From assembly GCF_963921235.1 (NCBI RefSeq), contig NC_086097.1, positions 135,534,001-135,598,000 on the forward strand: a stretch of DNA of 64,000 nucleotides. The letters are read 5' to 3'. The DNA is from Mobula hypostoma (Eukaryota). A model generated the notes under the pieces. It searched no databases. It had not been told where the DNA came from and worked only from the letters and a program-made list of their open reading frames with translations. This document shows, piece by piece, positions 35,900-36,390 of this stretch; position 1 is the first letter of the stretch, and each line of letters begins with the position of its first letter. The position numbers were made by a program, and so were the translations under genes.

Positions 35900-36390
35900 A
35901 CTCTTGACTTTACAGAAAGGAGGAACAACACCTTATATTCCATCTGGGTAGCCTCCAGCCTGATGGCATGAACATTGACTTCTCAAACTTCTGCTAATGC
36001 CCTACCTCCCCCTCGTACCCCATCCGTTATTTATTTATATACACACATTCTTTTTCTCTCTCTCCTTTTTCTCCCTCTGTCCCTCTGACTATACCCCTTG
36101 CCCATCCTCTGGGTTTCCCCCCCTCCTCTTTTCTTTCTCCCTGGGCCTCCTGTCCCATGATCCTCTCATATCCCTTTTGCCAATCACCTGTCCAGCTCTT
36201 GGCTCCATCCCTCCCCCTCCTGTCTTCTCCTATCATTTCGGATCTCCCCCCCCCCCACTTTCAAATCTCTTACTAGCTCTTCTTTCAGTTAGTCCTGATG
36301 AAGGGTCTCGGCCTGAAACGTCGACTGCACCTCTTCCTACAGATGCTGCCTGGCCTGCTGTATTCACCAGCAACTTTGATGTGTGTTGCT
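35900..36390 (+). mobile_element. Penelope 3' fragment with pLTR tail
   Basis: EEQHLIFHLGSLQPDGMNIDFS, pyrimidine-rich 3' region, hammerhead motif, then gatgctgcctggcctgctg. Confidence 0.88.
36291..36326 (+). ncRNA. Minimal type I hammerhead ribozyme (Penelope-associated)
   Basis: AGTC-CTGATGA-agggtctcggcct-GAAAC-GTC-GACT: stem I AGUC/GACU, complete CUGAUGA and GAAA core, stem II hairpin, palindromic ACGU in place of stem III, GUC cleavage triplet at 36320-36322. Confidence 0.75.

Follow-up and report, generated by a model that had tools for sequence, protein, structure and literature searches.

A minimal hammerhead ribozyme motif in a young, 5'-truncated Penelope-like insertion of Mobula hypostoma

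The window, by which we mean the whole 64,000-nucleotide stretch of Mobula hypostoma DNA analysed here, carries on its forward strand a short Penelope-like copy that is flanked by a target-site duplication and contains a minimal hammerhead motif (Table 1). None of 400 random zone pairs yielded a repeat like the 13-bp duplication. Contig depth across the copy jumps by about five orders of magnitude in three runs, and loose ends of contigs accumulate at 35919, where the family homology begins after the first three bases of the copy (AAA); at the opposite border, 18 contigs of run X9 align through 36401 and then diverge, leaving a loose end beyond the duplication. Of the reverse transcriptase (RT) plus GIY-YIG layout, the copy retains only C-terminal endonuclease codons, which are 73% identical over 26 aa to an RT/GIY-YIG element at 57.9–59.5 kb of the window and identical at 21 of 26 residues to the database protein P0001, itself a weak match to Pfam GIY-YIG (E 8e-4, below the cut-off). 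The motif follows the stop of the GIY-YIG ORF by about 300 bp, a layout shared with the 57.9–59.5 kb element, and a further tail box is recognisable in four of the nine other window copies. Both the 5' truncation and the short target-site duplication are traits of endonuclease-bearing Penelope-like elements, and we infer that the 473-bp insertion originated according to the established model of target-primed reverse transcription.

Table 1. Window coordinates of the insertion, its parts and its borders
Feature	Position	Strand	Evidence
Left copy of the 13-bp target-site duplication	35903..35915	+	12/13 identical to the right copy, offset 486; the mismatch is at a CpG
5'-truncated Penelope-like copy, 473 bp	35916..36388	+	Contig depth jump, loose ends, empty-site junction
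End of the GIY-YIG endonuclease ORF (last codons with stop)	35919..35994	+	Protein identity to the longer element and P0001
Pyrimidine-rich 3' untranslated / pLTR-type region	35995..36290	+	Counterpart in the 59 kb copy aligns at 61%
Minimal type I hammerhead motif	36291..36326	+	Letters, pairing counts, folding, published consensus
Family sequence 3' of the motif, stopping before the optional longer tail of other copies	36327..36388	+	Copy comparison
Right copy of the target-site duplication	36389..36401	+	Empty-site contig of run X11 aligns to the right copy

The observation of the motif is confirmed. Its 36 letters are identical to those of the original prediction, which had described a complete core closed by stem I, and all eleven invariant core positions as well as H17 are present without any core change (C3 U4 G5 A6 N7 G8 A9, G12 A13 A14 A15.1, U16.1 H17, in the established hammerhead numbering). 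The CUGAUGA half of the core occupies 36295–36301 and GAAA (G12-A13-A14-A15.1) occupies 36315–36318, while stem I joins 36291–36294 to 36323–36326 by Watson-Crick pairs at four of four positions. As had also been proposed, stem III is replaced by the self-complementary palindrome ACGU (36318–36321), and the predicted scissile bond, correctly numbered from the outset, lies 3' of C17 at C36322. Placement in a Penelope pLTR likewise agrees with our findings: the motif sits in the 3' repeat region after the end of the GIY-YIG ORF and, position 11.1 apart, matches the published consensus.

Two details of that first reading need amendment. Although the core letters were right, A36302, an extra unpaired base between A9 and 10.1, had been overlooked; such a base is a hallmark of the published class of minimal hammerheads (min-HHR) (PMC4209133). 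Stem II accordingly comprises 36303–36306 paired with 36311–36314 (pair probabilities 0.66–0.74 in folding of the isolated 36-mer), and we rejected the register closed by A36302–U36314 that the first reading implied, which has a probability of 0.02 and a hairpin of -1.1 kcal/mol, compared with -2.3 kcal/mol for the other register. Two of the four pairs of stem II are G-U, among them the closing pair 10.1–11.1, for which the consensus is G-C. To call the hammerhead intact is therefore fitting for the core, stem I and the palindrome, all of which are complete, but slightly too strong for stem II, which closes with G-U where its relatives mostly have G-C.

That so short a consensus was matched merely by chance might be suspected from the folding energy, which does not set the motif apart (z = -0.09; the z-scores carry no signal for motif or element), and from covariance models, the proposed means of recognising the hammerhead: in our Rfam search no hammerhead family matched at the gathering score, nor at E values up to 10. 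However, the relaxed pattern CTGANGA-N6..30-GAAACGT has two matches in the 64-kb window where 0.03 are expected, and none of 100 shuffles reached two; the motif holds a fixed position after the end of the GIY-YIG ORF and fits the published consensus; and stem I covaries across families. Of the 60 cells for its three inner pairs, 44 are Watson-Crick, as opposed to a shuffle mean of 26.1 (0 of 20000 shuffles; 20 clusters from the matches listed, together with the 36291 copy), with exchanges among G-C, C-G, A-U and U-A. Hence, a chance match is already refuted as an explanation. The covariation on which the original prediction was to be judged thus exists at the level of the motif class, computed across other sources, and the test is not phylogenetically independent, with 106 of the 129 rows listed in one cluster and several singletons from the same family. 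Four viral_contigs matches that look like chance were excluded from it, and a separate, hand-picked alignment (A2, with one empty row) is merely illustrative of the covariation.

Motifs of this kind have been known since 2014, when minimal hammerheads were described in the pLTRs of metazoan Penelope-like elements (Cervera and De la Pena 2014, PMC4209133), and 36291–36326 is one more copy, correctly caught. It shares with them the type I topology, CUGANGA followed by one unpaired base, G at 10.1, GAAA, a palindromic 15.2–16.2 without a stem III loop, a UH site and a short stem I, and those published are likewise mostly solitary copies on truncated elements (PMC4209133). Unlike many of the listed motifs, in which stem II has 5–8 bp, the 36291 copy has a stem II of 4 bp, and it carries U instead of the consensus C at 11.1 (PMC4209133). 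Cartilaginous fish are absent from the 44 published example rows examined, and shark and skate terms gave no hits in supplementary file 2 of that paper (PMC4209133); a literature search combining hammerhead ribozyme, Penelope and shark returned a single paper, whose "shark" is a ribozyme shape. Hammerhead-bearing repeats have been reported in one chondrichthyan genome among the non-LTR retrozymes of animals (bioRxiv 10.64898/2026.07.22.740005), which resemble our copy in having a type I hammerhead in pLTR-derived sequence, but which consist of tandem units with a hammerhead in each, whereas the 36291 copy is single and keeps an endonuclease ORF end.

The anole Poseidon element PAc (Anolis carolinensis) offers a closer comparison in layout, as it too is a GIY-YIG/RT element that carries a hammerhead in its pLTR and whose alternative 3' ends either include or lack a short tail (PMC11167929); its ORF starts inside the ribozyme (PMC11167929). 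In contrast to Penelope and Poseidon, the longer element of our window has a C-x3-C-x2-C linker, which marks Neptune and Nematis: a CX2-5CxxC linker between RT and endonuclease is described for these two groups and not for Penelope/Poseidon (Craig et al., PMC8557442). Linkers of this type are present in the longer element and in the database proteins P0001–P0003, while the region is missing from the 473-bp copy.

The longer element (57862–59500, forward strand) lies inside a 14-bp duplication (57862–57875 and 59487–59500) and consists of an inverted tail arm (about 57876–57935) followed by a partial RT, the linker and a GIY-YIG domain in two frames. Its RVT_1 match is weak (E 0.005), its GIY-YIG match (23.1 bits) exceeds the cut-off of 22.6, and in its hammerhead at 59395, A6 is changed and the 1.1 pair is broken. 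A ray (80%) and a shark (62%) supply its best database relatives, in line with a cartilaginous fish as the likely host. Two ray proteins, P0001 (80% identical along all 251 aa of the query) and P0004, are named as kinase-type isoforms but are largely or partly Penelope-like, so that these names probably reflect mis-annotation or an exonised element. A tiny two-armed Penelope-like insertion at 33130–33314 lies inside an exact 14-bp duplication (33130–33143 and 33301–33314); in its minus-strand arm, which begins at around C3 of the hammerhead, the core is intact and the 5' strand of stem I is lost. Among the ten copies in the window, three keep the full core, and only the 36291 copy also keeps the palindrome and stem I.

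The family is very abundant: 88,258 (X5), 48,161 (X10) and 37,984 (X11) contigs aligned on 1.6 kb, with the depth, which is not copy number, peaking in these three runs in the bin that contains the motif. The metagenome matches represent families of other animals, as none of the at least 126 loci listed matched the 62 bases downstream of our motif; among the matches listed, GIY-YIG-like sequence was present at 10 of 126 metagenome loci. One metagenome contig carries two hammerheads of another family (L013 and L014) in opposite orientation about 2.5 kb apart; with GIY-YIG-like sequence upstream of L014, the pair looks like an inverted-flanked Penelope-like element.

The insertion is young, being common to one relative that has diverged by about 2% and absent from two outgroups at about 4% and 7%. 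Record 8 of run X11 passes directly from 35902 to 36389 (523 letters on the left, 140 on the right, none between) and differs by two letters over 36389–36528, while record 2 of run X10 connects the same flanks (170 and 470 letters) across 16 intervening letters; both records represent empty sites. In run X5, by contrast, record 15 extends 33 letters into the element, which indicates a filled site in a related organism; the X5 contig at the right junction has just 22 letters inside the element, under our 31-letter rule, and gives weaker support. The flanks diverge by 2.1% in X5 (filled), 4.1% in X11 (empty) and 6.7% in X10 (empty). At 1.1–3.5% neutral change, the 14 core and palindrome sites would all remain unhit with a probability of 0.86–0.61, and a set of 28 sites with a probability of 0.73–0.37, the excess of change at CpG lying outside this model. 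Given the youth of the copy, its intact core needs no selection to explain it.

What change there is in the motif probably reflects CpG decay. At 11.1, the nine other window copies have C (five), T (three) or G (one), and the TG and CA variants among them point to an ancestral CpG; the published consensus has C (PMC4209133), as do 121 of the 128 pattern matches listed (metagenome contigs and other sources, with 11.1 left free in the pattern). The G-U pair at 36314 is thus probably the product of decay of an ancestral C, as read from other copies and not from the copy's own subfamily. N7 (36299), which is C in 58–86% of the aligned depth across four runs, is likewise probably a decayed CpG. A G-U pair at 10.1–11.1 is seen in five of the 128 pattern matches listed and, by our own count, in six of the 44 published example rows examined (PMC4209133), so that the change is likely mild and need not be damage, at a cost, in the energy model, of 1.7 kcal/mol per stem II relative to G-C; our literature search found no measured rate for G10.1–U11.1. 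Neither of the presumed CpG hits fell on the catalytic G8 or G12, and three of the five CpGs of the motif are still intact, a pattern that fits drift but would also suit mild selection.

To judge from published elements, two motifs on one transcript of an active tandem element would swap strands, the catalytic half of each acting on the GUC site in the other, while the two ACGU palindromes would form a shared 4-bp stem III and the element's own protein would likely assist the cleavage. A single min-HHR of S. mansoni showed no cleavage, and its dimers and trimers showed low cleavage (PMC4209133); the PAc ribozyme cut only when the protein of the element was present (Frangieh et al. 2024, PMC11167929), and no RNA-seq reads ending at the cut site were reported in anole (PMC11167929).

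Since C36322 can be cut only if a partner contributes a catalytic half that is intact, the solo copy is unlikely to be cut. The unit has no adjacent repeat, the nearest copies in the 64-kb window lying at distances of 3.1 kb (other strand) and 4.8 kb (same strand), and only one of the six other forward-strand copies has a full core (14527), at a distance of 21.8 kb and with stem I and palindrome damaged. In two further forward-strand copies, 31465 (4.8 kb upstream) and 16178, the GUC site is preserved, as is stem I on its 3' strand. In energies that omit tertiary terms, the active-type heterodimer with 31465 reaches +0.7 kcal/mol versus -17.3 for the summed monomers, that with 16178 reaches -6.4 versus -14.6, and the strand-swapped homodimer reaches -9.5 versus -16.4 for two monomers. 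A G-C version of the dimer is disfavoured too, so that the energy model, which cannot tell live from dead copies, shows only that help is needed. The isolated monomer is predicted to bury G5–G8 against 15.2–17 (probability about 0.72), and stems I and II are predicted at no more than 0.01 in all four longer contexts.

We consider it most likely, with considerable confidence, that the 473-bp solo copy is a silent, neutrally decaying remnant of one young, 5'-truncated Penelope-like insertion that carried the motif in with it; its inactivity we infer. The original prediction had gone further, proposing that the copy could self-cleave or cut a forward-strand host transcript, for which we find no support: the copy is a solo fragment with no intact partner nearby, and no forward-strand host gene was identified. 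It is very unlikely, in our estimate, that the copy lies in a forward-strand host pre-mRNA and there cuts, or is cut, by pairing with a family copy on the same or another transcript. Its catalytic half is complete, 31465 and 16178 could serve as substrate halves, and the family is very abundant, also in run X9, which we guess to be RNA (7,250 contigs aligned). Against this stand the unfavourable heterodimers modelled with those two copies, the near absence of the stems in longer contexts, the low published activity even in tandem, and the failure to find a host exon, although a long intron could still be missed. A Pfam scan of 106 stop-free stretches of at least 70 aa between 22 and 50 kb gave two weak hits below the cut-off, neither a host gene; these were 106 of 109 such stretches, the other three having been scanned separately and belonging to a hAT region, and the scan would miss short exons and long introns. 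Of 114 candidates in a simple splice-site scan, the three strong ones are all within the 58 kb element. An exon-like stretch near 35770–35880 was rejected, as it has 1-base indels relative to two outgroups. Run X9 also contains a 192-nt exact contig just downstream (36451–36642), which may be RNA or DNA; contigs of the runs reveal neither strand nor ends, and the lack of coverage over the upstream flank in X9 carries no weight as evidence.

Still less probable, to the point of being nearly negligible, is that the host has domesticated the copy as a regulatory ribozyme, akin to the intronic hammerheads that are conserved in amniotes. The RECK ribozyme, which self-cleaves during transcription in vitro (PMC6155905, PMC3088659), is comparable in having a type I core in vertebrate non-coding DNA, and the 36291 copy is both the best preserved of the ten window copies and common to two organisms. 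However, hammerheads of the RECK type are conserved across lineages (PMC6155905, PMC3088659), while our copy is lineage-specific, absent from two close outgroups, without a stem III of its own or any sign of loop-loop contacts, and preserved to the degree that its youth predicts. A different possibility, which concerns the family and leaves the verdict on the 36291 copy unchanged, is that the motif is maintained because it serves some other function, for example as a signal that binds protein or marks a reverse-transcription boundary, with cleavage being secondary. We regard this as unlikely, yet as deserving more weight than the foregoing: PAc ribozyme mutants had no effect on insertion in vitro (PMC11167929), Naiad elements proliferate without canonical hammerheads (PMC8557442), and in each of the four runs, loose ends of family contigs accumulate where stem I ends on its outer side (36291/36292 and 36326/36327). 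These ends may, however, merely mark the divergence of other subfamilies, the conserved letters are the catalytic ones themselves (PMC4209133), and C3/G8 mutants lose and then regain cleavage as expected (PMC11167929).

Within the reading of the copy as a young, silent remnant, the target site itself merits a comment. The site (35903–35915; 36389–36406), whose 13 bp are present in the outgroup without the insertion, resembles, in register, the tail found beyond the 3' junction in older copies of the window: 12–13 of 18 letters match for three of four tail references, a level reached by 0.06–0.26% of 127,964 window positions, while the fourth matches at 9 of 18 (10% of positions). The insertion could conceivably record homology-primed internal initiation, in which the nicked target annealed to the RNA tail and reverse transcription began inside the transcript, but we consider this doubtful. 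For each of the two other duplication-flanked window copies, no more than 5 of 14 letters agree with the copy's own tail; the comparison is post hoc, its references are other subfamilies, and the resemblance is found in one of three insertions tested. We did not find target-tail homology stated in the literature searched on Penelope-like elements.

As one more member of its motif class, the copy matters little, and as a solo copy it makes the in vivo role of the hammerhead no more testable than an intact tandem element would. Its modest value is that of an insertion with clear borders, an age that can be estimated and empty sites in outgroups; it can be used as a neutral-decay control for the motif, and it adds one data point on target choice and the start of reverse transcription in Penelope-like elements.

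Some minor features of the window may be recorded. Between the motif and the next forward-strand copy lies a broken hAT-family transposase on the minus strand (about 37400–40050; Pfam Dimer_Tnp_hAT, E 8e-08), and a long, imperfect CA/TG-rich repeat at about 55800–56600 yields spurious open frames. At 36329–36345 (forward strand), a pyrimidine run and CAG precede an ATG that lies 20 bases past the cut site, resembling a splice acceptor before a start codon; the AG of this splice-like site is present in five of the ten window copies, and the majority of loose ends in all four runs read TAG before the ATG.
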